Below, piece by piece: positions 39,446-62,172 of a stretch of 64,000 nucleotides of DNA. Location: assembly GCA_052146795.1 (NCBI GenBank), contig JBKQMH010000151.1:1502-65501 (forward strand). The letters run 5' to 3'. Origin of the DNA: Verrucomicrobiia bacterium (GTDB lineage: Bacteria > Verrucomicrobiota > Verrucomicrobiia > Palsa-1439). The notes under the pieces were generated by a model. That model ran no database searches. It was given only the letters and a program-made list of their open reading frames with translations, and was not told the DNA's origin. The position numbers and the translations under genes were made by a program. How positions within the stretch are numbered: the first letter of the stretch is position 1; every line of letters starts with the position of its first letter.

Positions 39446-39462
39446 AGCCGCAGAATGATTTA

Positions 39463-39477
39463 GCACTGACGGTGCCA
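39463..39477 (-). promoter_or_regulatory. Candidate sigma-54 (-24/-12) promoter, minus strand reads TGGCACCGTCAGTGC
   Basis: GG-N10-GC spacing. Shares TGGCA-N-CTGC architecture with 45310..45324 and 61962..61976. 18 nt upstream of the ATG. Confidence 0.35.
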
Positions 39478-39654
39478 GCACGAGGAAGCGAAGTTCTAAC
39501 TAACGGTGCTGCAATGAACTACGCAGGAAAACACGATGAGGCCTGTGCCCTAAGAACCTGACATTTTGGCAAGATGGCACGAGCCATGTCGACAAGTTGT
39601 CGGCTTGGCCCACTTACTTCAGGAGTGACCGCTGTTTTGGCGCCCCATCTGATA

Positions 39655-41667
39655 CTAGAAGCGGACGCTGCAACTGGCGCTGACCAGATTCGCGACGTAG
39701 TTGTTGAAACCGCCGGTGCTGGACTCGTCGTACGAGTAGAACCCGTAGCGAAGGCGGGCGACCGCATTCTTGCTGATCTTGCGGCTGACGCCTGCCTGAA
39801 CTGCATGGCGTTGGAAATTCAATCCCAGTGGCAGACCGGCGGCGTCGTTGTTGCTGAAATTGTCCGAACACGAGTAGCTGTATTCAAGTGTGAGATCGGT
39901 CTTGTTGTCGATCGCGTAGCCGGTTGTGGCCATGACCGTATACACGTTGCCCCGGTACGTTTGGACGGCGGGGTTTTGATTGACGGGCGTGCTCGTCCGC
40001 GTGTCTTGCAACGAGAAGTAGCCGGTCAGGTACCATCGAGACATCGGCGTGACCGTCGCGCTCACGCTGTAAATATTCAAATCGTAATCGCCCGACTGGA
40101 GTGTGCCGCCGGGCGTAATCACCGGAACAGCTTCCGTGCTGGTGCGGATGTCGGTGGACACGAGCTGGTAGGTGAACGCGACGCTGAACCGCGAGCACGG
40201 GCGCAAGGTCAGTTTGGCCATGGCCTCGTCGGTGGTGAAATCCTGCGCGGTGATGAATCCGGGGTAGCCCACAACGGTGTCGATGGGATAGTCGTAGTCA
40301 TCGTGATCAATGTAATGTCGATAACTGCCGGCCAGCGTCATACGGGACAGCGGTGCGGTGTTGAAGCCAACGCGGTAGTCCTGTCGCAATGTTGTCTCGT
40401 TGGAGTCGACGGCGAGGCTGGAAGCGCCGTCCTCCGTCTCCGTTTGGTCCAAATCGATTTGCTCTTCGTTCCATTGGCCCTCGGCGTAGAGGGTGGTGTA
40501 CGGAATCTTCGTATACCGCATGCCGAGGGTTTCTGAGAGGCTCTCGGTGTTCTCGGACGAACGAATCAGGTTGGTCGTCGCCGCCGAACCGCCTTGTGCG
40601 AGAAGCGCGTCGGTAAAACCGTGCGTATCTGTTTTTTCCGCCTGCAATCCGCCGTAGAGAATGAGGCCCTTGAACGGCCCAAACATGGTATTCAGGTTGA
40701 CCACGTCGGAATCCAACTCAACCCCGATCGCATTGGCCGTCCCGCCGATGTCGAACGGCCCGACCGGCGGCGGGGTACTTACCTGGATGTCGCCGTTACC
40801 GGAGAGCGAGCTGTGCAGATAACCGAGCGACCAATACACCTTGTCATTCACATGGCAGTCCATATGGAACGTATTGTAGAAGGCATCCTGATGATAGTCC
40901 TCGTGAACTGTCACCGTTTGGCTGGAACTCGTGTTCAGGTCTATCGAGGTATCATCGCGCGTATCATCGCTGCCGAAGTGTTCATAGCGGAAGTCGTCCA
41001 ACAGGTGGACCTTGCTAATGTCATAGTCCACGCTCAATTTGACGATATCGGTGTGTTCTTTGATGCCGTCGGTCGAGGGATAAATCTTGCGCGTGTTCGC
41101 GCCCTGCGTGACGCCCCCCCACTCGACCAATGATTCGTCGCCATCCTGTGATTGTCGCTCATAGCCGACGGTGACTTTGGGGAGATTGGGCAAGGTCAGT
41201 CCAGCCTCGAAGAAGATATCGCTGTTATCGATCCGCAGGCCTTGATCCAGACGGAATGACGACGGCGTAAACGGCCCGTAGAAGCCCCCCTGGCTGTCGT
41301 AGTACTCGCGATATTCGGTGTACCCGGTCCGAACAAAACCGAAGTCCCGTTTCGTCAATTGTAACTGGAATTTGTAGTCGTGCTCATCAATGATAAACCG
41401 GCCTTCGCCATCGAGCGTCGTGTCTTTGTTGAGATCGTAATGCAGCGTTCCATCCTCAACGCCGCCGTTCCAGCCCGGCTCGATCCCGAGGTCTTCGCGG
41501 AATTTCTGGGCATTGCCGGACACCTTCGCATACGTCACCTCCGGCGTCCCGGACAACTGGATCGGCGAATTGGTTTGCGAATCATCGCCCCGGGCAGCGG
41601 CGAGCGTCATCAGTCCCAGCGGGAGGGTAACGAGGAGCACTTTGTAGAAGGTGTATTTCATCACCAT
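39655..41667 (-). CDS. Large outer-membrane beta-barrel of a porin-cytochrome conduit (MtrB/OmbB-like by context)
   Basis: 670 aa, signal peptide, alternating-hydrophobic strand pattern throughout, C-terminal ...SCSVRF. Immediately downstream of two multihaem cytochromes. Confidence 0.55.
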   Translation of the reverse strand: MVMKYTFYKVLLVTLPLGLMTLAAARGDDSQTNSPIQLSGTPEVTYAKVSGNAQKFREDLGIEPGWNGGVEDGTLHYDLNKDTTLDGEGRFIIDEHDYKFQLQLTKRDFGFVRTGYTEYREYYDSQGGFYGPFTPSSFRLDQGLRIDNSDIFFEAGLTLPNLPKVTVGYERQSQDGDESLVEWGGVTQGANTRKIYPSTDGIKEHTDIVKLSVDYDISKVHLLDDFRYEHFGSDDTRDDTSIDLNTSSSQTVTVHEDYHQDAFYNTFHMDCHVNDKVYWSLGYLHSSLSGNGDIQVSTPPPVGPFDIGGTANAIGVELDSDVVNLNTMFGPFKGLILYGGLQAEKTDTHGFTDALLAQGGSAATTNLIRSSENTESLSETLGMRYTKIPYTTLYAEGQWNEEQIDLDQTETEDGASSLAVDSNETTLRQDYRVGFNTAPLSRMTLAGSYRHYIDHDDYDYPIDTVVGYPGFITAQDFTTDEAMAKLTLRPCSRFSVAFTYQLVSTDIRTSTEAVPVITPGGTLQSGDYDLNIYSVSATVTPMSRWYLTGYFSLQDTRTSTPVNQNPAVQTYRGNVYTVMATTGYAIDNKTDLTLEYSYSCSDNFSNNDAAGLPLGLNFQRHAVQAGVSRKISKNAVARLRYGFYSYDESSTGGFNNYVANLVSASCSVRF

Positions 41668-41674
41668 GGCTCCG

Positions 41675-42481
41675 TCAATACCGCAGGTGCGCGTTAATGT
41701 CCGAACCGTGAACGGCCGTGTGACAACCCGCGCTGAAACAGGTGCCCTGTTCTAGGAAGCTGGTGGGCGCAAACCCGGCGTGCGGCATGTTCCCGATCGA
41801 TACGACGCCGGGCAGGGTGGGCGAGGCCACCTGCGCGTGGCACTTCAGGCACAGATTATTGTCGCGCTCGGTCAACATCTTCGGGTTGATCGAGCCGTGC
41901 ACGTTGTGGCAAGAGGTGCACCCTTCGCGCATCGCCTCATGCTCGTAGACGTGCGGCCGGGCCTGCTCGCGATGGCATTGCGCGCAATCCTCGTTCACGC
42001 GGCCGACCAGCATGCCCTTCGGTTTGAGAATGTCTTCGCCATGCGGATCGTGACAGGAGATGCAACTCATCCGCCCTTCCTTGACGGGATGATGGTATTG
42101 GAGACTAAACTCGGCGTTCTTATCGAGATGGCACTGGAAACACGCCTCGGGACTCTTGCCGGGGTTGACGATCAGTTTGCGGTCCCCGCCCGAATCCACA
42201 TGTAAACTGCCGGGACCGTGGCAACTCTCGCATCCTTGCCCTTCCACACGCGGTCCCTCGCCGGGAATCTGGATTCGCGCGTGCTCCGTAAGCTTGAAGT
42301 TCTTCACTTCCTTCTCGTGGCACAACGCGCATTGATCCATGCCGACGTACTTGGCGCCCGGAATCATCGGCGGGGCAAGAACCACCCGATCCACCGTCGC
42401 GCAGGAGATGATCAATGCGGCCAACGCGGCGCCACCGATGGCTGCGACTGTTACCGCAGTTGAGGATCGTGGGCTATTCAA
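41675..42481 (-). CDS. Periplasmic multihaem cytochrome c (7 CxxCH + 1 Cx4CH), lipoprotein-like signal
   Basis: CALCH, CESCH, CFQCH, CISCH, CAQCH, CTSCH, CLKCH, CFSAGCH. Signal with ...LIISC. Confidence 0.8.
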   Translation of the reverse strand: MNSPRSSTAVTVAAIGGAALAALIISCATVDRVVLAPPMIPGAKYVGMDQCALCHEKEVKNFKLTEHARIQIPGEGPRVEGQGCESCHGPGSLHVDSGGDRKLIVNPGKSPEACFQCHLDKNAEFSLQYHHPVKEGRMSCISCHDPHGEDILKPKGMLVGRVNEDCAQCHREQARPHVYEHEAMREGCTSCHNVHGSINPKMLTERDNNLCLKCHAQVASPTLPGVVSIGNMPHAGFAPTSFLEQGTCFSAGCHTAVHGSDINAHLRY

Positions 42482-42592
42482 GGATCACCTCTGGTACCAA
42501 TCTCTGCCTGCGAAGGGTCGGGCGGCCGCCTTCGACGACTTGCGTCCTCTGAGCCGCCGCCCGTGTCGAAACCCGCGCCATCGCGCCCACTC

Positions 42593-45280
42593 CTACCGGA
42601 GGACGGCGTACGGATAGGCGTTCGTGTACGTCCTGGTCACGTCATTGTAAAAGTTCGTGCTCAGATCGGTGTAGGTCGTTTGCAACAGGCGGATGGTGAA
42701 CTGCGAGTTGTGCACGCCCATGCTGCCTTCGAAATACTCCAGATTCCAATTCCAAGCGGCCTTGCGTTGCGCTGCCGTCAAAGCTACATTGTTGGTGGAA
42801 TAGCCGCCGCCGAAATAAATAGTGCTTCCATGCGCGATGGTATTGGAGAGACCCGTCGCGTACATCAGGGTCGCCAGATTGTTCAACAGTCCCTGCGTTT
42901 GCGTCTGGATGCCTTCGATCACGCCATTCGTATTGCCGTCATAATTTTGGAAGTTCGCCGCCTGATAGTCGAAGTTAGTGACCGGCCCGAAGCTCCCGTG
43001 GCACTGGTTGCACGCGGCAATGTTCTCCACCACATTGGTCATACCATTCGTGCCCACATATTGGTACGTCATCTCAAACGTGTGGGAGCCCAGCACGTTC
43101 GCATAGGTGGCAAGGTTGTTTGCCGTGATCACAACCGGCGCGTCATTGACGAGGATCGTGTCACCCGCCTTGAGTGAATACATATGGCATTCTTGGCAGC
43201 TCGCCAGGTACGTGTGGAAAGAATTCCCCATCTCCTGGCCATAATCGCAGGCGCCCAAGCCGGCGAACATTTCGCCAGCGGTGCTCATGTCCGGTGTAGT
43301 TGTCTGGTAGAACATCTGATTGGTACCGGAGCCGCTGACCTGGATTTGCGTCGGCCACATTCGCTCATTGTGGCAGACCATGCAGGCCGCGGACAAACCA
43401 GCATTGGTCACGGTGACGGTGCTGTTGGTCAACGCCAGATTCGCCGTGGTCAGGCTGTCGCCGAGGCCGATGCGAACCGTCGGGCTGTTCGTCAGTAGCG
43501 GGTTGCCCAATTGGACGGTGTCATAAACCCGCAATTGGTGGCGCGCCGAATCGGGCGCATTGCCGAAGTTGCTATGCGGATCGTGGCAGACCTGGCAGGT
43601 CAACGGCCCGGTGCCCAGGGCCACCGCGGTCAAGCCCGCCGCGTTGGTGATGGCGGCGGCGACCTGGTTCGTCGCGACGCTGATAAAGGCAGCGGGCGAA
43701 TGGCATCGCGCGCAGCCTGAATTGTTGCCCTCTGAATCGGATATGCTCTCAAACGCTCCCGCGTGCGGCGAAATCTCCCATTGCTGGACATTGACTTCCT
43801 CGGTGCCGCTCTGGTGGCAGCTCGAGCAGACCTTCTCATTCAGGCTGACGGACGGCGAACCCGGATGCTGGCTGCCGGGACCGTGGCAGTTTTCGCACTG
43901 GATGTTGGCCAGATTCTGGAGCTGAGCGGGCATCAACGCGTAGTTGCCCGCTTGGAGCACGGTGGGGAAATTCCAGCCAAGTTGTTGTTGGACAGCATAG
44001 AAATTGCCGTTGGCCGCCGCCGCCGGTGATTGGTTGAAGCCGACGGTATGGCATTGGAAGCAAGACTCGTTGTAATGCGAGGAGAGGACTCCGTCCACCC
44101 CGCGCTGGGCCATCGTCGCATGCCCCGTCCCTTGCCACGGCGTAACCATATCGGCCAGACCGACCAGGTTGCCCGGGCCATGGCAGATCGCGCAGAACTC
44201 CACACCGGTCCAGCTGGCCGCCGTGTTGGTGACAGTCTGGCCCGTGACATTGTCCTGAATCACGTATATGCCCTGGACGTCAGGCCGCAACGCAGCGATC
44301 AAACCATTGGTGTGTGTAAGGGCGGCGACGGAACCAGCAGGCTTGGACACGAGTGACCAGTTCATGCTATTGGTCGCCCCCTTATAAAAGGCGGTTACGC
44401 CTGCCGGAATATTCGGTTGTGCGGGCGTCTGGACGGAACACGCCACCGTGAAAACCCCGGTGCGTGTGACCGAGCCATTGCTGACGAGCACTTGGAAGCC
44501 GTACGTGGCTGCGCCCGCCTCTTCGTTGTCAAGGGAAATGCCGCTGGCAGCGCCAAACCGATGTTCTGGCGGCACATACGGTTGATTCGTGTAAACGCCG
44601 GCGGTGTGAAAGTCGATAGTGTTCACGAAGGGTGCTGTCGTCGTGGCCATATCCACGAAGTTCGTCAGCGCATCCGTGGTGAAACTGGTCGAGACAGCGC
44701 CGTTGGCGCTCAGCGCAACCGTCTTGCCGCTGGTCTGGCTCCAGGTGTACGTCAGCGTCCCTGCCAGGCCACTGGTGGGGACGATCGAGCCGTCCAGCGT
44801 TACCGAGTTTTCGAATCCCACATCGTAGAGGTTTGTCGTCACAGTCAGAGACCCCGACGGAACGGCGTTGGTGACGGAGGTGATGGTAACGTGCAATGTC
44901 TTTGAGCCGATGTTCTTGCGGTCAAAAGTCGCGGTCACGTGCACAGTCGCAACGCCAACGAAGTTGGTGGGGATGAGAACCGATGTGCCCGACACGTTCG
45001 TACTGGCGCCAACCGGCGGGTTGGTAATGGTGAGCACGGGGAACTTCGTCGTCCGGAATTTTTTGCCGCTGACCGTGGCCTTGACGACCAACGGACCCGT
45101 GTTGGTCACGACATTCAAATCGAACTGGTAGCTGAGCGTGCCTCCCGACACGATGGTCCCGGCAGCTGAGACAGTCCCAAGCTTGGCGGCAGCAGGCGCG
45201 GCGTGTGTTTGCAAAGCGACCATGGTAGACAGTGCGACGACCAGCGCACCGACTCGTTTCAGAAAATGTGTTCCCGTCAT
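42593..45280 (-). CDS. Large secreted/surface multihaem cytochrome c (9 CxxCH) with N-terminal beta-rich (Ig-like) region
   Basis: Signal peptide, ~330-aa Thr/Val-rich N-terminal region, then CAICH, CFQCH, CENCH, CSSCH, CARCH, CQVCH, CMVCH, CQECH, CNQCH. Confidence 0.8.
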   Translation of the reverse strand: MTGTHFLKRVGALVVALSTMVALQTHAAPAAAKLGTVSAAGTIVSGGTLSYQFDLNVVTNTGPLVVKATVSGKKFRTTKFPVLTITNPPVGASTNVSGTSVLIPTNFVGVATVHVTATFDRKNIGSKTLHVTITSVTNAVPSGSLTVTTNLYDVGFENSVTLDGSIVPTSGLAGTLTYTWSQTSGKTVALSANGAVSTSFTTDALTNFVDMATTTAPFVNTIDFHTAGVYTNQPYVPPEHRFGAASGISLDNEEAGAATYGFQVLVSNGSVTRTGVFTVACSVQTPAQPNIPAGVTAFYKGATNSMNWSLVSKPAGSVAALTHTNGLIAALRPDVQGIYVIQDNVTGQTVTNTAASWTGVEFCAICHGPGNLVGLADMVTPWQGTGHATMAQRGVDGVLSSHYNESCFQCHTVGFNQSPAAAANGNFYAVQQQLGWNFPTVLQAGNYALMPAQLQNLANIQCENCHGPGSQHPGSPSVSLNEKVCSSCHQSGTEEVNVQQWEISPHAGAFESISDSEGNNSGCARCHSPAAFISVATNQVAAAITNAAGLTAVALGTGPLTCQVCHDPHSNFGNAPDSARHQLRVYDTVQLGNPLLTNSPTVRIGLGDSLTTANLALTNSTVTVTNAGLSAACMVCHNERMWPTQIQVSGSGTNQMFYQTTTPDMSTAGEMFAGLGACDYGQEMGNSFHTYLASCQECHMYSLKAGDTILVNDAPVVITANNLATYANVLGSHTFEMTYQYVGTNGMTNVVENIAACNQCHGSFGPVTNFDYQAANFQNYDGNTNGVIEGIQTQTQGLLNNLATLMYATGLSNTIAHGSTIYFGGGYSTNNVALTAAQRKAAWNWNLEYFEGSMGVHNSQFTIRLLQTTYTDLSTNFYNDVTRTYTNAYPYAVLR

Positions 45281-45309
45281 AAATGGTTGTCCTCCATCTC
45301 CCTGCTATG

Positions 45310-45324
45310 GCAGTGGACGTGCCA
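45310..45324 (-). promoter_or_regulatory. Candidate sigma-54 promoter, minus strand reads TGGCACGTCCACTGC
   Basis: TGGCACG-N4-CTGC with GG-N10-GC spacing, 30 nt upstream of the cytochrome ATG (GGAGG SD between). A sigma-54-dependent regulator is encoded immediately upstream. Confidence 0.5.
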
Positions 45325-45626
45325 AGGTCATCGTCCAATTCTGTAAGCGTGGCGCTGACAGCTACTTACTTGAAACGGCATGCTGGCACAAGACAATAAA
45401 TCACTGGAAGCTGCGCGGATTCGCTCAAAGAAATGCGTGCTTCCGCGCAACAGGACATCAACGCGCCAACCCAATGGCACCGCTTTCAACGGTTTTCGGG
45501 GCAGAACCGGCACACGGCACGAGCAGTGCTAAGCCGATAACGGTATGCTCACAGGCAGGACGTTGGGACTCGTGCTCGCGCTGATCGGGGTGATCGTAAT
45601 CGCCCTGTCAGCGGTCGTGATCTACT

Positions 45627-47027
45627 TCAGCACTTCGCCGCGCTGAGTTCGCTGGTCGTCGCGGCCAGATACCCGTACTTGATCAACCGGCGACGTAACG
45701 CGTCGCGCTCGATCCCCAGCAATTCCGCCGCGTGACACTGGTTGGCGCCGGCGCGTTCCATCGCCTGGTAAATCAATTCGCGTTCCACCTCCGCCAGTGC
45801 CACACCACCGGGGGGCAATTGAATGAGGGAATGTCCATTCAACCGCGTGCCCAGCCGCAGCTCCGTCGGCAGGTGTTCGGGCAGCACCACCTCGGCTCGC
45901 TCGAGGATGACCAGCCGCTCGATAACGTTGCGCAACTCGCGCACGTTGCCCGGCCATGCGTACTGCTGCAGCATCGTGGCGGCTTCCGCCGAAAGTTTCT
46001 TGATTGGCCTGTTGAACTCCTCAGAAAACCGAGCGAGGTAATGTTCCGCCAGCAACGGGATGTCTCCCGCTTGTTCGCGCAAGGACGGCATCCGCAGCGA
46101 AATGACCTTGAGCCGATAGTACAAATCCTGTCGGAATTCTCCCTTGGCCACGGCCTCCTCAAGGTTCTTGTTGGTCGCGGCGATCACACGCACATCCACG
46201 GAGATGTTTTGCGTGCCTCCGACGCGTTGAAACTCTCGCGACTCCAACACCCGCAGCAATTTCGCCTGCAGCGCGGGTTTCATGTCACCGACCTCATCGA
46301 GCAACACCGTGCCGCCGTCCGCGAGTTCAAATAGCCCCCTCTTGGTATTCTTCGCGTCGGTGAACGCGCCGCGCTCATGTCCGAACAACTCGCTTTCGAT
46401 GAGCGCGTCCGGAATTGCCGAGCAGTTGATCCCCATGAACGGCTGATTGGCCCGCGCGCTGCCGAAATGAATCGCGCGCGCCGCCAACTCCTTGCCCGTC
46501 CCGTTCTCGCCGTCGATGAACACCGTCGTGGCGTCGCTCTCGCCGACCCGCGCAATCAACTCTCGCACCTGGCGCATCTGCGGACTCACCCCGACAAGGT
46601 TTTCCAAGCCGAACTTGCGGCGTTGCGCGCGGCGGATGCGCGTGACTTCCCGACGCAGTTTCAAGTCCTCGCGCGCCTTTTCCAGCGCCACGCGCACTTC
46701 GTCAAACTCGAACGGCTTGCACAGATAATTGTACGCGCCGAGCCGCACGCATTCGACGGCGCGCGCGATCGACGTTTCCGCGGTCAACATGATGACGGCG
46801 ATGTCGCGCTCCAGATTCCTGATCTCTTGCAGCACTTGTACGCCGTCGATTCCCGGCAATCGTAAATCCAGCAGCACCAGGTCGAAACCGTCCTCGCGGA
46901 TGAGGTTCAGTCCCTCCTCGCCCGTCGGCGCCGATTCGACCTCGTAGCCTTCGCGGCCCAGCTTTTGTTGAAGTGACCAACGTACGAGTTTCTCGTCGTC
47001 GATAATGAGTATCTTAGTTCTCGACAT
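45627..47027 (-). CDS. Sigma-54-dependent response regulator (NtrC family)
   Basis: Receiver (ILIIDDE), AAA+ sigma-54 activation domain (GESGTGKE-like FIDGENGTGKE, GAFTDA), C-terminal HTH. Confidence 0.9.
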   Translation of the reverse strand: MSRTKILIIDDEKLVRWSLQQKLGREGYEVESAPTGEEGLNLIREDGFDLVLLDLRLPGIDGVQVLQEIRNLERDIAVIMLTAETSIARAVECVRLGAYNYLCKPFEFDEVRVALEKAREDLKLRREVTRIRRAQRRKFGLENLVGVSPQMRQVRELIARVGESDATTVFIDGENGTGKELAARAIHFGSARANQPFMGINCSAIPDALIESELFGHERGAFTDAKNTKRGLFELADGGTVLLDEVGDMKPALQAKLLRVLESREFQRVGGTQNISVDVRVIAATNKNLEEAVAKGEFRQDLYYRLKVISLRMPSLREQAGDIPLLAEHYLARFSEEFNRPIKKLSAEAATMLQQYAWPGNVRELRNVIERLVILERAEVVLPEHLPTELRLGTRLNGHSLIQLPPGGVALAEVERELIYQAMERAGANQCHAAELLGIERDALRRRLIKYGYLAATTSELSAAKC

Positions 47028-53737: not shown

Positions 53738-53838
53738 TCCCCCGGGGTGGTCATTCTGAGCGCGGGGAAGAAGCTTTGGATCGCCTCCCTTGTGGGGATC
53801 TTCGCTTCGGTCAGGGTGAAAGACTGGAAAAGCGGCGT

Positions 53839-54759
53839 TCATTTCGACAGTCCCTCCCTCGTAGGTTTCCGACTGCGGCGATGGACCACGGCGTACTCGA
53901 TGGCCACGCCGAGACAAAAGGCCACAACCACGATTACGGAGAACACCCGTCGGTTGGCCCGCACCGCCGCGCGCAGTTGGTCGTTTTCCTTCCGCTCGTC
54001 GGTGACCTGTTTCTGCAGTGTTTCCGGAGTCATCTCCTTGAGGCGCTGCACCTCGCTCTCCAAGACGGCAATGTCGCTGCGGCTGTGCACCATTTCCTTG
54101 TGGCAAATGGCACAGGTCTCCGCGCCAACACTGAACGCGTGCCCGCGCGCGCCGGTCCCCTTGATCTTCAGCCCGGCGTTCATCACCTCCGGCATGTGGC
54201 AATCGATGCACTTCACGCCCTTGACGTGATGGGTCGCGTGCGAGTAGTCCTTCAACCGTTCCGTGTGGCAGGTGCCGCACATTTGGTCCGGGTCGTCCTT
54301 GCGCAGCTTCATCTCGTGCATCTTGTGGCAGTCGAAGCAGCGGATGTTCTTCTGGCCGTGACGGCTGATACGCCACTCGCCGTAGGTAATGCTGTGACAG
54401 GACTGACACGTCTCGGCGGTCACGGGCAACAGCTTCTTCACCTTGTCGGGATGGTCCGCAGTCGCCGGCCCGTGACAGGACTGGCAACTCACGCCGGCAT
54501 GAGAGAACGTGCCGGTCTTGCGGTCGTACTGGCTGGTGTGGCAGACGAGGCATTCCCACTTCTCACCTTCCTGGTCCCACTCGGCGAGAAATCGGCTGTT
54601 GATGGTGTGCGCGTGTGGCGAGTCCGTCCACTCTTTCGTTTCCTGCTCGTGGCAGAGGGCGCAGGTGTCGGATTCCTTTTCCTCGTCGGCCCCCCACACG
54701 GGCGCCAGTGGGACGAGCGTCACCAGCAACGCCGCAACCATCAATTCGGAGCGAGTCAT
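53839..54759 (-). CDS. Octahaem cytochrome c with C-terminal TM anchor (module B)
   Basis: Start at MTRSELMVAALL (signal peptide). 8 CxxCH. Paralog of 50670..51587. Confidence 0.85.
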   Translation of the reverse strand: MTRSELMVAALLVTLVPLAPVWGADEEKESDTCALCHEQETKEWTDSPHAHTINSRFLAEWDQEGEKWECLVCHTSQYDRKTGTFSHAGVSCQSCHGPATADHPDKVKKLLPVTAETCQSCHSITYGEWRISRHGQKNIRCFDCHKMHEMKLRKDDPDQMCGTCHTERLKDYSHATHHVKGVKCIDCHMPEVMNAGLKIKGTGARGHAFSVGAETCAICHKEMVHSRSDIAVLESEVQRLKEMTPETLQKQVTDERKENDQLRAAVRANRRVFSVIVVVAFCLGVAIEYAVVHRRSRKPTREGLSK

Positions 54760-56726
54760 CGCGGGGTCTTTCCTTTCTCCAGCTCCGCGGCCGGAGCTTC
54801 GGGTTTGGGTTTCGGCGCGCACGGGTCAGGGGCATGCGCCCCCTTCTTGCCGATCAACCAGGCGGGGTTCATCGGGTACTCCTTCGGATCGAAGATGACC
54901 CAGTAGAAATGCCAGACCAGAATTGCCAGGGTCGCCAAGACCGCCTCGTAGTAATGGATCACCTGGGCCACATCGTGCCACACCTTGGGGACCAATCGCA
55001 GCACCGTGTTGGTGAAAATCAGCATCGCCCCTGTAATAATCATCACGAACGAGCCCCAGACCAGCGCCCAATACTCGGCCTTTTCGGCGTAGTTCCAGCG
55101 ACGGTGCGGCGGCGGCGTCTGACGCAGGCCGAGGTTGAACGCCAACTGGGCAGCGGCGTCCCGCAGATCGTGCGGCACCATCCATAACGTCCACAAGTAG
55201 CTGCGGCCCCGGCGGGTGCCGACCAGGGTGAACAGATGCACCACGAAGAACACCGCGAACGTCCAGCCGCAGACGCGATGGATCATCCCCCGAATGTAGG
55301 CCCCCGTCTCCCCGAGCGCACGGAACGGCCAACTCCAACCCGCGTCGGGAAACTTGTGCGCGAATCCCGTATAGGCCAGCAGGATGAACAGCACCGTCAG
55401 CAGCCAATGTTGGGCGCGCACCAGTCGCGTCAAACGCGGTTCTGCGTGCGCGTCCGCGTTCACGGCGCGGACGTGGGCGCGGGTTTTGCGCAGATAGTCG
55501 AGCAGATTGAAGGTGGACATGCCGCCGATGGTCAGCAGAATCAAGCCGATGTAGAGCCGGGAGATGAAATTCACCAGCCACGGTTTGCCTTCCGCGGCCC
55601 CCGGCGGCGCGTGAATGCGGAAGAACTCCGCGCTGAGCCGATTGCCAATGCCAGGATGACACTTCCCGCAAGTCTCCGGCAGGTTCTTCGGATTAATTGT
55701 CGAGAGCGGATCGCTCGCGGGCAGGATGTCATGGATGCCATGACACGAGGCACAATTGGCCGCGGTCAGGTTGCCGCCTTGCAAGGCCAATCCGTGAAAG
55801 CTTTGCACATACGTCGTAAATACGTTTGGCGGCAGACGATACTGTGTCACGATCCGCTGCGCGGCGTGACACTGACCGCAGGTCTCGGGGATGTTGGCGG
55901 GCGACACGCGGGAGGTGGCCAGTTTGACGGCTTGGATCGAGTGTTCGCCATGACAATCGGTGCAGACGGGCGCGTCGCGGACGCCGCTCTTGACCGCTCG
56001 GCCGTGAACGCTACGGAGGTAGGTTTGTTCAACGTTTTCGTGGCATTTGCCGCAGGTGCTGGGGACATTCTGCCAGTAGAGCTTCGACGCGGGATTGGTC
56101 GACCGATGCAAGTTGTGGGAGCCGTGGCAATCCGTGCACACCGCGGCGTTGATTTCACCTTTTTGCAGCAGCGCGATCCCGTGGACGCTCGAATCGTAGC
56201 TCACGATCGGCGTGCGCTGACGGAGATGAAACTTCTCCATTTCCGCCGTGTTGGCGTGACAGCGCCCGCAGGTCTGGGGAAGATTGGTGCGGTACACCGG
56301 CGAGGCGGGGTTGCGATAGTTCAGCAAGTAGTGGTTGTTGCCGTGGCAGTCCTTGCAGGAGGCCGCCTCCGGCACGCCCTTGTGGATCGCCTGGCCGTGA
56401 TCGCTGTTCAAATAAATTTCCGTCTCGACCCGGTGGCACTGGCTGCAACTAACCGGCTTGGCCTGGAAATTGTCCGGATGCGGCACGTCGGTGATGTCCG
56501 AGTGGCAACTCGTGCACAGGTTCTTGGCGTGGATCGATCCGTCGAATTTGCCCTCGTCCACAAACAGCGAGACCGCCTGGCCGGTGGCGTTGGTCGTCAC
56601 CAAATTCCGGTCGCTGTGGCACGCAAAACAGTCGGAGTTGTCGATCGCCGAGGCGCTCGGTGAGGTCGCGGGCAGTGCCGCGACCAGCATCATCGAGAGC
56701 ACGACCGAACGGATCGGCGTCCTCAT
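54756..56726 (-). CDS. Undecahaem cytochrome c fused to C-terminal dihaem-b-type (FdnI/HydC-like) membrane domain (CbcL-like), copy 1
   Basis: Start MRTPIRSVVLSMMLVA (ATG 56724..56726). 11 CxxCH. C-terminal ~250 aa has 4-5 TM helices with His-bearing motifs. Confidence 0.8.
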   Translation of the reverse strand: MRTPIRSVVLSMMLVAALPATSPSASAIDNSDCFACHSDRNLVTTNATGQAVSLFVDEGKFDGSIHAKNLCTSCHSDITDVPHPDNFQAKPVSCSQCHRVETEIYLNSDHGQAIHKGVPEAASCKDCHGNNHYLLNYRNPASPVYRTNLPQTCGRCHANTAEMEKFHLRQRTPIVSYDSSVHGIALLQKGEINAAVCTDCHGSHNLHRSTNPASKLYWQNVPSTCGKCHENVEQTYLRSVHGRAVKSGVRDAPVCTDCHGEHSIQAVKLATSRVSPANIPETCGQCHAAQRIVTQYRLPPNVFTTYVQSFHGLALQGGNLTAANCASCHGIHDILPASDPLSTINPKNLPETCGKCHPGIGNRLSAEFFRIHAPPGAAEGKPWLVNFISRLYIGLILLTIGGMSTFNLLDYLRKTRAHVRAVNADAHAEPRLTRLVRAQHWLLTVLFILLAYTGFAHKFPDAGWSWPFRALGETGAYIRGMIHRVCGWTFAVFFVVHLFTLVGTRRGRSYLWTLWMVPHDLRDAAAQLAFNLGLRQTPPPHRRWNYAEKAEYWALVWGSFVMIITGAMLIFTNTVLRLVPKVWHDVAQVIHYYEAVLATLAILVWHFYWVIFDPKEYPMNPAWLIGKKGAHAPDPCAPKPKPEAPAAELEKGKTPR

Positions 56727-58930
56727 GGCTGTTCTCCGACGTTGGCGGGTTGCATCGCCGCTGGGGGCGGCGCGCCGGGCCGCCCGGTTTCGCGCGAGTG
56801 CAACCGCGATGCCATCGCATACACGATCAGCGCCAATAGCACCAACCCCAGACCGAAGAAGACGTAGCCGAACGAGCGGTGGATGCTCCGCCATTTCTGC
56901 CACTCGTCCTTGACGCGGTAATCGTCGAGATGCTTCTCGCCCTCGAGCCGGTCGTACCACCGCTTCCGCTCGTGCAGCATTTCCGTCTTCGAGATCCGGC
57001 CGGAGAAAATCACCGTGTCCATCGGGAATTTTTCCAGCCGGAAGTGCGTGTTGAAGAAGTGGAACGTGAAGATGAACCCGGCCGCCAGCAACGCCTCGTC
57101 GGAATGGATGATGAGCGCGATATTGATGACCCAGCCCGGCATGAACCGCGTGAAGAACTGCGGAAACCACATGACCAGCCCCGACAGCCCGATGGCGAAA
57201 ACTCCCCAAAATACCGCCAGGTAGTCGAACTTCTCCCAGTACGTCCACCGGTCAAACTGCGGCCGCGGTCCGTTGCCGAAGAACCATTTCTGGTGCGCGA
57301 TGAAATCCCGCCAGTCCTGCAGTGTGATCAGCATCGAGTCGGGACCGAACACGACCTTCAGCGCCCGTTTCAATTGGAACTTGCCGGTTTGCGGGTCGCG
57401 GAAACCCGGTCGCCGCGCCCAGATCGTGTTCAGCAACTCGATCACGTGCAGCGAAAAACAGACGAACAGGACGAACGCCGCAAAGTGATGGAACGTCCGC
57501 GCCACCGCCGCCCCGCCCAAGAGGTTGAAAATGCTCTTGGCCCAGTCCGTGTAATAGAATTTCAACGGCATCCCGGTCATGACCAGCAACAGGAAACTGG
57601 TCACGAGCATGAAGTGCAGCATCCGCTCGAACGGCAGGAACCGCGTGAACCATTCGTCGCCAGTTTGCGCGCTGATTTTGGCTTCGCGGAACGATTTCGA
57701 GTCGTGGCGATACAGGTAGCCGGAGCGGAAAAACCAGAACACCGTGTGCACCCCGAACACGCCAAACGTCCCGATCAACAGCGAGGTCATCACCATAAAC
57801 GTCAGGTGCAACGCCGGATAATGCTTCGCGTCCAGCGGATTGGCGTGCGGGATGTACTTGGTAAAACTGACGGTTGCCTTGGCGTGACATTGCCGGCAGG
57901 TCTCAACGATGTGCGCGGGCGACAAACGCGACTGCGGATCGGAGGGCGGCAGGATGTCGTGATACCCGTGACAATCGTAACAGGCGGCCACCTCGGGTGC
58001 GACGTTCGGTTTTCCCAGTGCCATCGCCTTGCCGTGGTAGGTCTCACGATAGTAGGCGAGCCGGTCTTTATGACACCCGCCGCACCGCTCATCGCTCATC
58101 AGTTTCTTGAAATCCCCGCCCTCGGGCGACTCGATTTGGTGCGCCGTGTGGCAATCACTGCAGACCGGAGCCCGCGGGTCGCCCTTGGCGAGCAATTGGC
58201 CGTGGATGCTGCTCTCGTACACCTTTTCCACACTGACGTGACACTTCCCGCACGTCTTGGCGATATTGGCATGATTGATCGGGGAACTGCGATCAACCGC
58301 CCGCTTGATGGTGTGGACGCCGTGGCAATCATTGCAGGACGGCGCGACGATCAGCCCCATTTTTAACAAGGCCCGCCCGTGGATGCTCTCGGCGTATTGC
58401 ACCGGCGCCTCCGGGTACTTCATGCGGTACTCGCTCGTCAGCCCGGGGTTGCTGTGGCATTTCGCGCAGGTGTGCGGAAGATTCAGTTTGAAGACCGGCG
58501 AATCCGGGTTTTTGACAGCCAGAATGTCGTGGGTGCCGTGGCAGTCCTTGCACGTCGGCGCACCTGACGCTCCCATCGCGCGGCTCACCCCGTGGATGCT
58601 GGTGGCGTACTCCTTGCCAACGACCTCGTGGCAACCCGCGCAGGATACCGACGGCGGGTTCGCGTCATGCGGCAATTCCGTAATGCCCGTATGACAACTC
58701 GTACAGAGGTTCTTGCCGTGGATGGACGCCGCGAATTGCTGATCGTCCACAAACAGCGAAACCGCCTGGCCGGCGGCGTTCGTCTTGACGAGCGACTTGT
58801 CGGAGTGGCAGGCGAAACAGTCAGCGTTGTCGATGGCCCGTGCGCGCGCCACGGGCCACAAACACAGACTCAGCAGGCACACCCATGCTGCCCGCCATTT
58901 GTTACGACCTCGCATAACTGTGGTACCCAC
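56723..58930 (-). CDS. Undecahaem cytochrome c fused to dihaem-b-type membrane domain (CbcL-like), copy 2
   Basis: Signal peptide. 11 CxxCH, colinear with copy 1 (both begin IDNxDCFACHSD). C-terminal polytopic His-rich domain. Start at 58930 or 58915. Confidence 0.8.
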   Translation of the reverse strand: MGTTVMRGRNKWRAAWVCLLSLCLWPVARARAIDNADCFACHSDKSLVKTNAAGQAVSLFVDDQQFAASIHGKNLCTSCHTGITELPHDANPPSVSCAGCHEVVGKEYATSIHGVSRAMGASGAPTCKDCHGTHDILAVKNPDSPVFKLNLPHTCAKCHSNPGLTSEYRMKYPEAPVQYAESIHGRALLKMGLIVAPSCNDCHGVHTIKRAVDRSSPINHANIAKTCGKCHVSVEKVYESSIHGQLLAKGDPRAPVCSDCHTAHQIESPEGGDFKKLMSDERCGGCHKDRLAYYRETYHGKAMALGKPNVAPEVAACYDCHGYHDILPPSDPQSRLSPAHIVETCRQCHAKATVSFTKYIPHANPLDAKHYPALHLTFMVMTSLLIGTFGVFGVHTVFWFFRSGYLYRHDSKSFREAKISAQTGDEWFTRFLPFERMLHFMLVTSFLLLVMTGMPLKFYYTDWAKSIFNLLGGAAVARTFHHFAAFVLFVCFSLHVIELLNTIWARRPGFRDPQTGKFQLKRALKVVFGPDSMLITLQDWRDFIAHQKWFFGNGPRPQFDRWTYWEKFDYLAVFWGVFAIGLSGLVMWFPQFFTRFMPGWVINIALIIHSDEALLAAGFIFTFHFFNTHFRLEKFPMDTVIFSGRISKTEMLHERKRWYDRLEGEKHLDDYRVKDEWQKWRSIHRSFGYVFFGLGLVLLALIVYAMASRLHSRETGRPGAPPPAAMQPANVGEQP

Positions 58931-59699
58931 TCAGCAGGAAGTTCACGCCGTAGTAGGTGAAAATGACCGAGGCAAAGCCGACGATCGAAATCCAGGCGGC
59001 GCGTTTGCCTTTCCAGCCCCGCATGAAGCGGCAGTGCAGGAATACGGCGTAGATGAACCACGTGATCAGCGACCAGGTTTCCTTCGGGTCCCAGCTCCAG
59101 TACGTGCCCCACGCGGAATTCGCCCAGACCGCGCCCGAGATGATGCCGACCGTCAGAAACAGAAAACCAAACGAGATGGTCTTGGCCGTCGCGGCATCCA
59201 GTGCCTCGGTAATGTCGGCTTGTGCCTTGCTGCCAGTGCGCGACGCGATCAAATAGCCAGCGCCCGTCAGCGCGGCGACAGCAAACCCGCCGTAGCCGAG
59301 GAAGGCTGTGAACACATGGAAGGTAAGCCAGTTACTGCGGAGCGCCGGCATGAGGGGTTGGATTTTCGTCTCAAACGTGCTCGCGTACGCCAGCGTGACC
59401 ACCGCCAGCAACGCAGTCGCCGCGCCGAGGACGGGGATGCGGTGGCGAACCTGCAGGGCGAGATACACGACCACTATCGCCCACGTAAACAGCACCATCG
59501 ATTCGAACATGTTGCTGAACGGCGCCCGACCGGCTGCGAACCAGCGCACGGCCATGTACACCGTTTGCGCCGCCACGCCCGCCGCGAGGAACACGGTCGC
59601 GCTCGAGGCGAACCATCCCTTTTTCGAGAACAGGTTAGCTGCCGAGAACAGTAGCGCCGTGAGATACCCAGCCAGGCTGAGATTGAATGCCCACGCCAT
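58902..59699 (-). CDS. ccsA: Cytochrome c biogenesis protein CcsA (system II)
   Basis: WGxxWxWD-type tryptophan-rich motif (AWGTYWSWDPKETWSLITW), 8 TM. The annotated start overlaps the hemA 3' end by 65 nt, so the true start may be downstream. Confidence 0.8.
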   Translation of the reverse strand: MAWAFNLSLAGYLTALLFSAANLFSKKGWFASSATVFLAAGVAAQTVYMAVRWFAAGRAPFSNMFESMVLFTWAIVVVYLALQVRHRIPVLGAATALLAVVTLAYASTFETKIQPLMPALRSNWLTFHVFTAFLGYGGFAVAALTGAGYLIASRTGSKAQADITEALDAATAKTISFGFLFLTVGIISGAVWANSAWGTYWSWDPKETWSLITWFIYAVFLHCRFMRGWKGKRAAWISIVGFASVIFTYYGVNFLLSGYHSYARS

Positions 59700-60720
59700 A
59701 GAGCCGCTCCTTTTCGAGGTTAAGTTTGGTCATCAAGGCCATCGCCCGCGTATTGACGATCTGGTCGCAGGCGGCCAGTTCCTGCTCTCGCGACCGCACG
59801 TTTTCACGCACGAGCGATTCGAGGTCGTCGATGTTGTAGAGGTACACGCCGTCGAGGCGTTGCACGTCGGGGTCGACGTTGCGCGGAACAGAAATATCGA
59901 TGAGGAACAACGGGCGGTTGCGCCGGTGTTTCATCAACGCCTCCACGTCGGCCCGATGCAATAGCGTTTTCGGGCAGCCCGTCGAGGCGACGACAATGTC
60001 GGCATCGGCCATCGCGGACAGGCAGGATTCAAACTGCACCGCCTGCCCGCCGAATTCGTTCGCCAGTTCGACGGCACGGTCGAAGGAACGGTTGGAGACG
60101 AGGATGGATCGGGCGCCCTTCTTGGCAAGGTGGCGGACGCAGGCTTCGCCCATCTGGCCCGCGCCGATAATGATCACGGTTTGCTTCGACAGGTCATGGC
60201 GGAAAATCTTTTCGGCCAATTCGACCGCCACGCTGCCCACGGAGGTCGCGCCGCGCCCGATGCTTGTGCGAGCGCGGATTTCCTTGGCTGCCTGAAAGGT
60301 TTTTTGGAAAACGCGGTTCAGCACGCGGCCAGTCAGCCGTGCCTCTTGGGCAATGTCATAGGCTTTTTTCACCTGGCCGGTGATTTCCGTCTCACCGATC
60401 ACCATCGAGTCGAGCCCGCCCGCAACGCGAAACAGGTGGCGCAGCGCCCCGACATCTTCATGTACGTACACGTGCGAGCCGTAATCACGCGGTTCCGCGC
60501 TGAGCAATCGGAAGAGTGAATCGATGCGGCCGGTCACCCGCGCTGTCGTGCCGTAAATCTCCACACGATTACAGGTCGAGAGCAGGACGATTTCATCCAG
60601 GTCGCCGCAAATCTTCAAGCGGCATGCCTGGCAGACCAACTTGGACGGTTTGACCGCGAGTTGCTCGCGCAATTCGACCGGCGCCGTCTTGTAGCTCACT
60701 CCCGCCACAAAGAGTGTCAT
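59635..60720 (-). CDS. hemA: Glutamyl-tRNA reductase
   Basis: TCNRVEIY catalytic motif, GAGQMGE NADPH-binding. 361 aa, so the C-terminal dimerisation region is shorter than typical. Confidence 0.85.
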   Translation of the reverse strand: MTLFVAGVSYKTAPVELREQLAVKPSKLVCQACRLKICGDLDEIVLLSTCNRVEIYGTTARVTGRIDSLFRLLSAEPRDYGSHVYVHEDVGALRHLFRVAGGLDSMVIGETEITGQVKKAYDIAQEARLTGRVLNRVFQKTFQAAKEIRARTSIGRGATSVGSVAVELAEKIFRHDLSKQTVIIIGAGQMGEACVRHLAKKGARSILVSNRSFDRAVELANEFGGQAVQFESCLSAMADADIVVASTGCPKTLLHRADVEALMKHRRNRPLFLIDISVPRNVDPDVQRLDGVYLYNIDDLESLVRENVRSREQELAACDQIVNTRAMALMTKLNLEKERLYGVGIQSQPGWVSHGATVLGS

Positions 60721-61931
60721 GACGATTTCCTCCGGGAGTCGAACCAGGGATTGAGGTAGAAGACGATGAACAGTCCGGCGATCATCAAGGCGAACCCGGA
60801 GTAAACGACCGCGACGCCGGGATCCTTCACCACTTGGAGTGACGTGTAGGACAAATCCTCGGGGTTATAGCCGGATTGGTAGAAGGTGTAGCCCTTGTAC
60901 GAAAACGGGCTGTTGACCTCGACGACACGGTGACCAACGACTGACTCGCCCTCGATCAATTCCAGCGTGCTCTTGAACGATTTGATTGGGCCCGCGGGCA
61001 TTGCCTTTTGCGTCACCGCGCCGCGACTCTCGTACACCATTTCCAACGGGCTTGGGCCGGAGGACTGGCTGTCCTTCGTGTGCATGTCAAAGTCCGGAAA
61101 CCTGGCAAACAGCCAGCGATGGTTCTGGTAGGTCGAGCCGTTGACCGCCACGAGGATCGCAGGATTGCGCGGTTCGTTGGACCGGCTGGTGACCTCGCGT
61201 GTCTGCATATCGACGACGAAGTCGGGTAGATACTTCAGGATCGTGATCTTGAATTCGCCGAACGCCTGCTCCACGCCCACCTTGACCGGCAATGTGGCCT
61301 CGAGTTTTTTCTCCGGCCACGAAACCTGCAGTCCGTCCCCGCCATTCTCATTCTTGGCTTGCGCTTCGCGACCAACACCTGCACCAGATTGGTCGTAGGT
61401 CTCGATTTCGAACTTCGTGAGGTGAATCGCAAACGGCAGTGGCTTGGCGCTGTTCTCGGTTACGACCTGGGCGTTGGTCTCGCCCTCGCGAAGCTCGATA
61501 TAGCCCTTCTCGCCCCAGACGCCCCGGATCACACCGCCCGTCAGGATCAGGAGTATGCTGATATGTGTGAGCATCGAGCCGAAAGCGCGGTAGCGCGCGT
61601 AACCGCTGGTCCGCCGCACGGTGGCAAACCGCGGCGAGCTGCATACCGCCACGGTCGCGGCGAGCGTGCCGAGCAAACCGATAAACCATACCGAATAGAA
61701 AACGTGCGTCAGCCCCAGCTTGCCAAGCAAATCCATGCGCCCGGCAGCATCGGGATTGTGACGAATGTATTTCGCCACATCCGCTCCCTGTGGGATCAGC
61801 GTGCCGGCGACGCAGGCGACCGCGATGATGACGACGACTGTGACCGCAAACTTTACCGAGGCCAATCGATCCACTAGCGAGGCAGTGAGGCGTTTCTCCG
61901 GCGTATCAAACCTGTTTGTAGCTTTAGCCAT
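60717..61931 (-). CDS. resB: Cytochrome c biogenesis protein ResB/CcsB (system II)
   Basis: N-terminal TM, large periplasmic domain, C-terminal TM pair. 4-nt overlap with hemA. Confidence 0.8.
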   Translation of the reverse strand: MAKATNRFDTPEKRLTASLVDRLASVKFAVTVVVIIAVACVAGTLIPQGADVAKYIRHNPDAAGRMDLLGKLGLTHVFYSVWFIGLLGTLAATVAVCSSPRFATVRRTSGYARYRAFGSMLTHISILLILTGGVIRGVWGEKGYIELREGETNAQVVTENSAKPLPFAIHLTKFEIETYDQSGAGVGREAQAKNENGGDGLQVSWPEKKLEATLPVKVGVEQAFGEFKITILKYLPDFVVDMQTREVTSRSNEPRNPAILVAVNGSTYQNHRWLFARFPDFDMHTKDSQSSGPSPLEMVYESRGAVTQKAMPAGPIKSFKSTLELIEGESVVGHRVVEVNSPFSYKGYTFYQSGYNPEDLSYTSLQVVKDPGVAVVYSGFALMIAGLFIVFYLNPWFDSRRKSS

Positions 61932-61961
61932 GGTGATCTAATCGATACAGCCTGCGGTTTA

Positions 61962-61976
61962 GCAGTGGCCTTGCCA
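61962..61976 (-). promoter_or_regulatory. Candidate sigma-54 promoter, minus strand reads TGGCAAGGCCACTGC
   Basis: 13/15 identical to the element at 45310..45324, 31 nt upstream of the resB ATG. Confidence 0.45.
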
Positions 61977-62134
61977 GCAAGTCGCAACAAACCAACAGAA
62001 CTTTTGCAACAAGCTGATTGACAGGGCATTGCGGTGCGCGAAATCACGCACACACGGAATATGGCGAACCTGATAGGAGCGACAGATTGGCGGGAAGGAA
62101 CCATTTCTTGACAGCTTGTCATCCAGTCAGGAAA

Positions 62135-62172
62135 CGAAAAACGCCGCGCGAGATCGTTCTCTCGCGCGGCGT
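62135..62172 (-). terminator. Rho-independent terminator for the tetrahaem-c gene
   Basis: Perfect GC-rich inverted repeat CGCCGCGCGAGA-tcgt-TCTCGCGCGGCG, followed on the minus transcript by UUUUUC. Confidence 0.7.

Follow-up and report, generated by a model that had tools for sequence, protein, structure and literature searches.

According to a recent proposal, uncultured Verrucomicrobiota of peat that carry porin-cytochrome clusters respire extracellular organic matter at depth in the peat (bioRxiv 10.64898/2026.05.27.727921). How are such cytochrome genes controlled, and do the neighboring genes for haem synthesis and cytochrome maturation share that control? We addressed this question in a 64,000-nucleotide stretch of Verrucomicrobiia DNA (Palsa-1439; GenBank assembly GCA_052146795.1, contig JBKQMH010000151.1, positions 1,502 to 65,501), referred to here as the window. 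An earlier interpretation made from the letters alone (the sequence-only reading) had noted a σ54-like motif upstream of three haem/cytochrome transcription units and proposed that all three form one σ54 regulon served by an adjacent NtrC-type regulator and its haem-c sensor kinase. We characterized the window proteins by Pfam domain searches and gene calls, and then compared the motifs with orthologous metagenome loci, 13 around the gene for an 895-amino-acid (aa) cytochrome and 22 around resB (1.54 Mb in total; individual loci are numbered with an L). The nearest relatives are uncultured Verrucomicrobiia of peat and soil, including metagenome-assembled genomes (MAGs) from SPRUCE and Stordalen (palsa/bog); one of the related loci, L013, comes from MAG palsa_1439.

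We consider it quite likely, from the position, geometry, and conservation of the elements, that the motifs are σ54 (RpoN) −24/−12 promoters, that there are at least five of them, and that they control a respiratory gene island. The gene context was borne out: the island contains an NtrC-type activator, a CXXCH-containing kinase, resB-hemA-ccsA, Cbc-type complexes, and AhbD-/AhbC-like radical-SAM genes.

Position and conservation of the −24/−12 elements

The three minus-strand 15-mers lie exactly where they had been reported, all three with GG-N10-GC spacing, and the first two are identical at 13 of 15 positions. The first (TGGCACGTCCACTGC, 45324..45310) precedes the ATG at 45280 of the 895-aa multihaem cytochrome gene, the second (TGGCAAGGCCACTGC, 61976..61962) precedes the resB ATG at 61931, and the third (TGGCACCGTCAGTGC, 39477..39463) precedes the ATG at 39445 of an AhbD-like gene. 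Written as −24/−12 elements, they are P_cyt895 (TGGCACGTCCACTGCC, 45309..45324), P_resB (TGGCAAGGCCACTGCT, 61961..61976), and P_ahbD (TGGCACCGTCAGTGCT, 39462..39477), located on the minus strand 28, 29, and 16 nt, respectively, before the start codon of the unit they face. The P_cyt895 leader holds an invariant GGAGGA ribosome-binding site.

The sequence-only reading missed two further elements. P_cyt201 (TGGCACGTAAGTTGTT, 62828..62843, minus strand) is 27 nt upstream of the first ATG in a gene encoding a 201-aa multihaem cytochrome. It has GT in place of GC at −12 (GG-N10-GT), whereas the other four promoters are GG-N10-GC; its orthologues at the same position (TGGCACGCACAATGCA, TGGCAAACATACTGCT, or TGGCAAACAGAGTGCT) have GC. 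P_small (CGGCACGAGCAGTGCT, 45515..45530, plus strand) is divergent from P_cyt895 and lies 14 nt before the ATG of a 33-aa open reading frame (ORF; 45545..45646, plus strand), which encodes a hydrophobic membrane protein (MLTGRTLGLVLALIGVIVIALSAVVIYFSTSPR). This ORF matches no Pfam family. It has the same length and reading frame in 13 loci, and the GG-to-GG separation of P_cyt895 and P_small is 193 to 195 bp in 12 of 13 loci. All five promoters are thus followed, 14 to 29 nt downstream and on the same strand, by a start codon; the GC-to-ATG distance of 14 to 17 nt at P_ahbD and P_small is itself conserved.

The case for the motifs rests on position and conservation, not on raw count. The bare pattern TGGCA-N7-TGC is not enriched in the window (5 observed versus 3.3 expected; 22 of 100 shuffled sequences reach 5), which would suit an origin of the matches by chance in a GC-rich genome, or as by-products of coding or RNA-level constraint. 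We scanned 128,000 window positions with an approximate σ54 matrix, whose frequencies we set ourselves from the consensus YTGGCACGrNNNTTGCW quoted in PMC5874634. The three noted sites rank 1, 3, and 6; P_cyt201 fills rank 4, and P_small ranks 8. Four of the six matches scoring ≥12 sit 16 to 29 nt upstream of a same-strand start codon (binomial P ∼4 × 10−6, under a model that places matches at random with respect to 49 gene starts), and the tighter pattern GGCA-N7-TGCTAA has three occurrences (0.05 expected), all of them immediately ahead of start codons. These position statistics argue against chance, and the retention of the motifs at orthologous noncoding positions in up to 15 loci whose flanks diverge contradicts it; the background of matrix matches ≥12 in the collected loci is 0.022 per 700 nt.

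Two sites could still be cited for chance or coding constraint. An equally good match, with the second-best matrix score (TGGCATCGCGGTTGCA, 56799..56814, minus strand), is intragenic: it lies 73 nt upstream of the Cbc2 ATG, within the 3′-terminal part of Cbc1, and follows from a conserved peptide, AMASRL. As an internal promoter, this match is probably fortuitous, because Cbc1 homologues lose GG-N10-GC; the absence of Cbc1 from most related genomes weakens it further. At P_ahbD, an in-frame GTG at 39481 would place the motif within a longer AhbD ORF, but orthologues with 1-nt and 5-nt indels around the motif, neither a multiple of three, exclude that ORF, and gene callers take the ATG. Nor does any Rfam family occur at the motifs, which argues against RNA-level constraint; we rejected a structured RNA or riboswitch, since the sole Rfam match in the window is a tRNA gene (6495..6566, minus strand) that is seemingly unrelated to the promoters. 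With this evidence, an origin by chance or as a coding or RNA by-product is barely credible.

The sequence GTGCTAA also prompted us to consider a CIRCE/HrcA operator (TTAGCACTC-N9-GAGTGCTAA). A CIRCE half-site-like CAGTGCTAA occurs at P_small, P_ahbD, and P_resB, but no partner half is present 9 nt away; we rejected this candidate, as the complete inverted repeat does not occur.

Conservation follows the same pattern at promoter after promoter. P_cyt895 is found as TGGCAY-N5-YTGC upstream of the cytochrome in 13 of 13 orthologous loci, 27 to 53 nt before the start of the tblastn match, and 27 to 30 nt before it wherever the match begins at residue 1. The TGGCAY and YTGC blocks are invariant down to 37% protein identity (loci at 37 to 51% are included), while the spacer takes eight forms in 13 loci (GTCCA, GTGTA, ATGCA, GTGCT, ATAGG, GTCCG, GCTCA, and ATGCT). 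P_ahbD is kept in nine orthologous loci, as TGGCACCG(T/C)CAGTGCT in seven, TGGCATCGGCACTGCT in L008, and TGGCACCGGCGCTGCT in L013, the spacer being altered in the latter two. The P_resB 16-mer is identical in 15 of 21 scanned metagenome loci; five of the other six have resB matches that start only at residue 11 to 23. The 12 P_resB loci that we aligned represent about five lineages, with 72 to 90% ResB identity and diverging flanks, and more distant loci carry TGGCAAGGTCGTTGCT or TGGCAAGGCCATTGTT ∼670 to 700 bp upstream of resB. Beyond the clade, cytochrome homologues at 30 to 35% identity (Limisphaerales and Acidobacteria) have the motif in just 1 of 62 cases, arguing that the architecture is clade specific. 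On these alignments, the three motifs originally noted are real and conserved.

Which kind of element is conserved in this way? P_cyt895 reads as a palindrome, TGGCA-N7-TGCCA, and 45308..45324 matches the pattern on both strands; in addition, the P_resB spacer, unlike the free spacers at the other promoters, does not vary at all, although a −24/−12 promoter needs no such constancy. Both features would fit an operator of an ordinary dimeric transcription factor, with σ70-type promoters located elsewhere. Yet P_cyt895 stands alone among the five sites in being palindromic, and its orthologues lose the symmetry (TGCG or TGCA). Conservation is also asymmetric, with TGGCAY and YTGC fixed and the spacer free, and both orientation and approximate distance to the start codon are the same at every site. 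GG and GC, together with their spacing, are invariant in orthologues to 37 to 41% protein identity as the spacer varies: as read from the alignments, fixed GG/GC around a free spacer marks a −24/−12 promoter, not a palindromic operator.

Two classes of upstream activator site

The sequence-only reading had suggested a check for shared inverted repeats 80 to 200 bp upstream of the promoters. This check was positive, and revealed two kinds of upstream activator site (UAS), here UAS-A and UAS-B. UAS-A is the palindrome TGCGCGA-N2-TCGCGCA. The window contains three copies with ≤1 mismatch (0.05 expected) and six with ≤2 mismatches (0.88 expected). Two 16-bp palindromes in tandem, 22 bp apart from center to center (TGCGCGGAAGCACGCA and TGAGCGAATCCGCGCA on the minus strand; 45412..45449), lie between P_cyt895 and P_small, with centers 97/119 bp from the −24 GG of the former and 75/97 bp from that of the latter. 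A second tandem with the same 22-bp phasing (TGCGCCAAATCGCGCA and GGCGCGAAATCGCGCA on the minus strand; 62932..62969) lies 98/120 bp from the P_cyt201 GG. P_resB has a single, near-perfect UAS-A (TGCGTGATTTCGCGCA on the minus strand; 62035..62050), centered exactly 68 bp from its GG.

This geometry is rigid. All 14 tandem UAS-A pairs in the 1.54 Mb of collected loci are flanked by −24/−12 elements, at distances fixed within 2 bp: on the cytochrome side, the GG is 95 to 98 and 117 to 120 bp from the two centers, and on the small-ORF side it is 74 to 76 and 96 to 98 bp away in all pairs but one (L011 at 3248). The 68-bp distance at P_resB is found in the window and in 15 loci. The tandem copies at the conduit promoters are weaker than the near-perfect single copy at P_resB, with two or three mismatches each in most genomes; this difference suggests a graded response in which the regulator operon would respond first.

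L011, a more distant relative, has two UAS-A tandems on one contig, ∼2.8 kb apart (402..623 and 3248..3388). Both have a −24/−12 element at 96 to 97/118 to 119 bp, joined at the first by a divergent element at 76/98 bp; this arrangement suggests duplicated conduit modules under the same control.

UAS-B consists of paired GACA-N3-TGTC boxes, 29 to 31 bp apart, that share one 11-bp palindrome. The window has four such boxes, all upstream of P_resB and P_ahbD: GACAAGCTGTC, 18 nt, and GCCAATCTGTC (62081..62120, minus strand), with the P_resB −24 element at +104/105 in all loci, and GACAACTTGTC, 20 nt, and GCCAAAATGTC (39560..39601, minus strand), with the P_ahbD −24 element at +80 to +82 in 10 loci. 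Across the collected loci, 29 of 31 UAS-B pairs are followed by a −24/−12 element, either at +80 to 82 (ahbD) or at +104 to 105 (resB); the box centers lie ∼90/120 and 112/140 bp from the promoters. In three loci (L090, L094, and L096), the cyt201 promoter has a UAS-B pair at +104/105 in place of its UAS-A tandem; because of this swap, UAS-A and UAS-B appear to be alternative modules for one kind of promoter.

Upstream palindromes at such rigid spacing are more in keeping with an enhancer and its promoter than with two operators acting independently, and the σ70 side of the dimeric-operator explanation fares no better. A σ70-like match, TCGACA-18-CAAAAT, does occur upstream of the ahbD site, but such matches are no commoner than in shuffled sequence, and scans for σ70-type promoters yielded no match at the cytochrome or resB promoters. 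We rejected the ahbD match as a promoter: it is single and weak, and it overlaps UAS-B, whose two boxes contain an identical palindrome, unlike −35/−10 elements. Taken together, an operator of a dimeric factor is quite unlikely, and we prefer to read the elements as σ54 promoters: GG-N10-GC is present in four of five, each faces a transcription unit, the elements are conserved, upstream sites lie at 68 to 140 bp, and an AAA+ activator is encoded in the island.

Do the adjacent kinase and activator govern all five promoters as one regulon, with UAS-B as an accessory or architectural site? The island has one activator gene, with no second in the window, and P_resB carries UAS-A and UAS-B together, as such a regulon would allow. 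P_ahbD is the difficulty: the 170-bp intergenic region contains no UAS-A in any orthologue, yet a σ54 promoter needs an activator. In the three loci mentioned above, the cyt201 promoter has UAS-B instead of UAS-A, with the +104/105 offset seen at resB, and UAS-B thus behaves as an alternative enhancer. At P_resB, moreover, UAS-B lies upstream of UAS-A, whereas a bending site would be expected in the interval from enhancer to promoter; the two kinds of site have no sequence in common. We therefore regard a single regulon as improbable. The σ54-type promoters and their tie to the adjacent NtrC-type system hold up from the sequence-only reading (GG/GC invariance, start-codon position, and upstream sites all favor them), but its one regulon under that regulator is not supported, given two unrelated operators. 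P_ahbD, which that reading had called its weakest site, has UAS-B without UAS-A, and in the window UAS-B is found only there and at P_resB. Since a σ54 promoter cannot fire without an activator, P_ahbD is probably controlled by a different one.

Gene order, regulators, and a proposed circuit

On the minus strand, the island begins with a cytochrome b gene and the 201-aa multihaem cytochrome gene; beyond a terminator lie resB, hemA, and ccsA. Cbc1 and Cbc2 (fused cytochrome c/b), two cytochrome/iron-sulfur (FeS)/NrfD sets, the kinase, and the activator come next; after a 346-bp gap lie the genes for the 895-aa and 268-aa cytochromes and a 670-aa protein, and after a 209-bp gap the radical-SAM genes. 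The intrinsic terminator (62140..62173, minus strand; 14-bp stem plus T run) sets the cyt201 gene apart from the resB unit, and complementarity of its stem is kept in orthologues despite changed bases. Because this terminator precedes P_resB, the resB unit needs a promoter of its own. From resB through the FeS/NrfD sets (48533..61931, minus strand; Pfam results), called genes overlap by 4 to 14 nt, and every gene from resB through the activator abuts or overlaps its neighbor (61931..45627); judged by this spacing, the run is one operon of ∼16 kb that includes the regulator genes.

Within this operon, hemA stands between the genes for System II cytochrome c maturation, resB and ccsA (58902..61931). 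Cbc1 (56723..58930) is an extra fused cytochrome c/b copy: in most related genomes, ccsA is directly followed by a Cbc2-type gene, and we found Cbc1 at this spot only in the window and L004. Its nearest homologues, at 61 to 69% identity, are in L035 (labeled Limisphaerales) and in L042, L059, L063, and L023 (Verrucomicrobiota or Verrucomicrobiales), which suggests that Cbc1 was inserted or laterally acquired within the operon.

The putative outer-membrane electron conduit operon (39655..45280, minus strand) encodes the 895-aa cytochrome, with MtrC/MtrF-like domains, the 268-aa periplasmic multihaem cytochrome, and the 670-aa protein (41667..39655), a putative porin that ends in Phe and has no family match. 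By family searches, the radical-SAM operon (39445..35678, minus strand) encodes an AhbD-like, an AhbC/NirJ1-like, and a third radical-SAM protein. Directly downstream and on the same strand, a FeoB-type ferrous iron transporter gene (33068..35401) puts iron uptake beside haem synthesis; its product (777 aa) has FeoB_N, Gate, and FeoB_C domains and ∼125 additional N-terminal residues.

The activator gene (45627..47027, minus strand) encodes an NtrC-type enhancer-binding response regulator with a receiver, a σ54-interaction AAA+ domain, and a Fis-type helix-turn-helix (HTH) (Pfam Response_reg, 104.5 bits; Sigma54_activat, 230.7; AAA_lid_14, 96.6; HTH_8, 40.4). Its translation contains IIDDE, LLDLRLPG, GENGTGKE, and LLDEVG. 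We used the ATG at 47027 and rejected a TTG start at 47069 that came from a mechanical ORF call. The protein falls below the equivalog cutoffs for AtoC, NtrC, and ZraR, and is therefore none of these. Its loop reads GAFTDA, and this is kept in all orthologues (78 to 100% identity). GAFTDA is also found in the σ54 activator DVU2106 of Desulfovibrio vulgaris, for which σ54-dependent targets are listed, and the variant has been placed among activation-compatible motifs (PMC4641369).

The sensor histidine kinase gene (47014..48540, minus strand) encodes a periplasmic haem-c sensor domain (CQRCH), HAMP, HisKA, and HATPase. The periplasmic domain (Pfam Mcp40H-20_sensor, 33.4 bits) matches PDB 3B42 from Geobacter GSU0935 (phmmer E value, 1.4e-6), with CQRCH aligned to CQSCH. 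By homology, it belongs to the Geobacter haem-c sensor type (GSU0935/GSU0582; PDB 3B42/3B47), and haem binding is predicted.

The 33-aa ORF and the activator gene are convergent, and their 3′ ends overlap by 20 nt (45627..45646), where convergent transcription would collide or yield antisense RNA. In L004 (8577..9434), and also in L003 and L010, ∼1.2 kb that is not in the window lies between the activator gene and the small ORF; it encodes, downstream of the 33-aa ORF and on the same strand, a ∼285-aa protein with a PEP-CTERM-like sorting signal at its end (…VIPEPETITLAMFGLIPILSWLVVRSRR). In these loci the divergent promoter would drive two genes.

How might these parts work together? From the elements, their geometry, and their conservation, we infer both σ54 dependence and the pairing of proteins with sites. 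The kinase would sense periplasmic redox state or electron-acceptor availability via a covalently bound c-type haem, an input suggested by analogy with Geobacter sensor domains and with the control of cbcBA by BccR, and would phosphorylate the adjacent activator. The activator would assemble on UAS-A and contact σ54 RNA polymerase held at the −24/−12 element. We assign UAS-A to this protein because its gene ends ∼200 bp from the tandem UAS-A and because the island encodes no other protein of this kind; kinase and activator thus probably drive the UAS-A promoters, namely those of the conduit operon, the 33-aa membrane-protein gene, the 201-aa cytochrome gene, and the 16-kb resB-hemA-ccsA-Cbc operon. 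Since the latter operon closes with the genes for the kinase and the activator, the circuit would include positive autoregulation. A second activator, binding UAS-B at the resB promoter and at the ahbD-ahbC operon, probably drives haem synthesis, so that haem supply and cytochrome maturation would integrate two signals. No candidate UAS-B-binding protein was found in the window or the flanking loci.

Several observations weigh against this proposal. No rpoN was found in the window, and a tblastn search of the 1.54 Mb of collected loci with E. coli RpoN gave no match. The activator lacks the canonical GAFTGA, and whether GAFTDA contacts σ54 is left open in PMC10714721. Adjacency is the one ground for assigning UAS-A to the local activator. 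As for the promoters, P_cyt201 has GT and not the near-invariant GC at −12, and the P_ahbD and P_small leaders are unusual, at only ∼4 to 6 nt and without a ribosome-binding site. The 68-bp UAS-A at P_resB is out of helical phase, 7 bp off the 75/97/119 series, and yet invariant. Finally, hemA, resB, and ccsA have housekeeping functions, which are odd behind a strictly activator-dependent promoter, and the location of the activator gene within its own target operon implies either a basal promoter (none was found) or second gene copies.

We are evenly balanced on whether the whole picture holds as one: a haem-c kinase and a GAFTDA activator that would act through σ54 promoters on the conduit, on inner-membrane quinol oxidoreductases, and on the genes that encode these two regulators; a UAS-B activator that would bring alternative (Ahb) haem synthesis and System II maturation under σ54 as well; modules interchangeable between lineages at distances fixed to the base pair; and two near-leaderless transcripts. 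This would be the first time that a regulatory circuit had been inferred for extracellular electron transfer in uncultured Verrucomicrobiota from peat.

Such a circuit would matter in three ways. First, the cluster brings its own maturation (ResB/CcsA) and haem-synthesis genes under what would be coordinated control. Scoring in the peat preprint was confined to ccm (System I) genes, most of which it reported as absent in these Verrucomicrobiota (bioRxiv 10.64898/2026.05.27.727921); use of System II by the cluster would explain why ccm appears to be missing from these MAGs. Second, five promoters, two enhancer motifs, and a haem-based sensor kinase with its activator make up a portable test system. 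Third, for σ54 biology, the island offers a well-footprinted case from a little-studied phylum, with an enhancer shared between divergent promoters, rigid distances, and a conserved GAFTDA; the main text of Francke et al. 2011 makes no mention of Verrucomicrobia.

Two other features of the window deserve a brief description. The gene at 28684..30195 encodes an unusual fusion, in which C-terminal cbb3-type cytochrome c domains follow an N-terminal region like cytochrome bd oxidase subunit I. At 16920..25506, an RND efflux system (outer-membrane factor, AcrB-like pump, and HlyD-like adaptor) adjoins an OmpR-type two-component pair, and is seemingly unrelated to the island.

Comparison with known systems

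In the enteric NtrB/NtrC system, where the regulator genes form part of the operon that they control, NtrC acts at glnAp2 from paired palindromes ∼100 to 140 bp upstream of a −24/−12 promoter. The island has the same plan: a kinase that would phosphorylate a receiver-AAA+-Fis-HTH activator, paired palindromic sites, and regulators in the target operon. It differs in its signal, which is probably haem or redox and not nitrogen; in its UAS, TGCGCGA-N2-TCGCGCA compared to TGCACC-N5-GGTGCA; and in its geometry, with sites phased by 22 bp and distances that are rigid to the base pair from genus to genus.

A further comparison is with DVU2106 and the orp operons of Desulfovibrio vulgaris, which are divergently transcribed. 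DVU2106 has been assigned two flanking operons, DVU2105-2103 and DVU2107-2109, with its targets listed under cell division (PMC4641369, which cites Fievet et al. 2011). DVU2106 shares the GAFTDA loop, and its two flanking operons parallel P_cyt895 and P_small; unlike the island's two-component activator, it is a single-component regulator, and its targets are unrelated to cytochromes.

The closest functional precedent is the cbcBA operon of Geobacter sulfurreducens, which has a σ54 promoter and depends on the adjacent activator BccR (GSU0598) (10.1101/2021.04.15.440034). In both systems, a receiver/AAA+/HTH σ54 activator is encoded beside b- and c-type cytochrome targets with a −24/−12 promoter, and the setting is respiration to extracellular acceptors. 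The likeness to BccR-cbcBA (GSU0598, GSU0593-0594) is one of function and architecture only. In the island, which belongs to another phylum, the activator gene ends the target operon and is not divergent from it, and the activator is paired with a haem-c sensor kinase. The island also includes an outer-membrane conduit, System II maturation, and hemA, with UAS-B linking in the Ahb haem genes.

Porin-cytochrome clusters of peat Verrucomicrobiota include type EET3 of order Palsa-1439 (bioRxiv 10.64898/2026.05.27.727921). By analogy of gene content (an extracellular cytochrome, a periplasmic cytochrome, and a porin), the window cluster appears to correspond to an EET3-type cluster, with lineage and environment apparently the same. 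The words sigma, promoter, NtrC, and Cbc are not present in that study; the regulatory layer and the linked resB, ccsA, hemA, and ahb genes go beyond it. In sum, the island is a familiar kind of control (an NtrC-type two-component system, σ54, and respiratory cytochromes) in a new lineage, and its main additions are a second enhancer class, the swapping of modules between lineages, rigid geometry, and possible leaderless transcripts.

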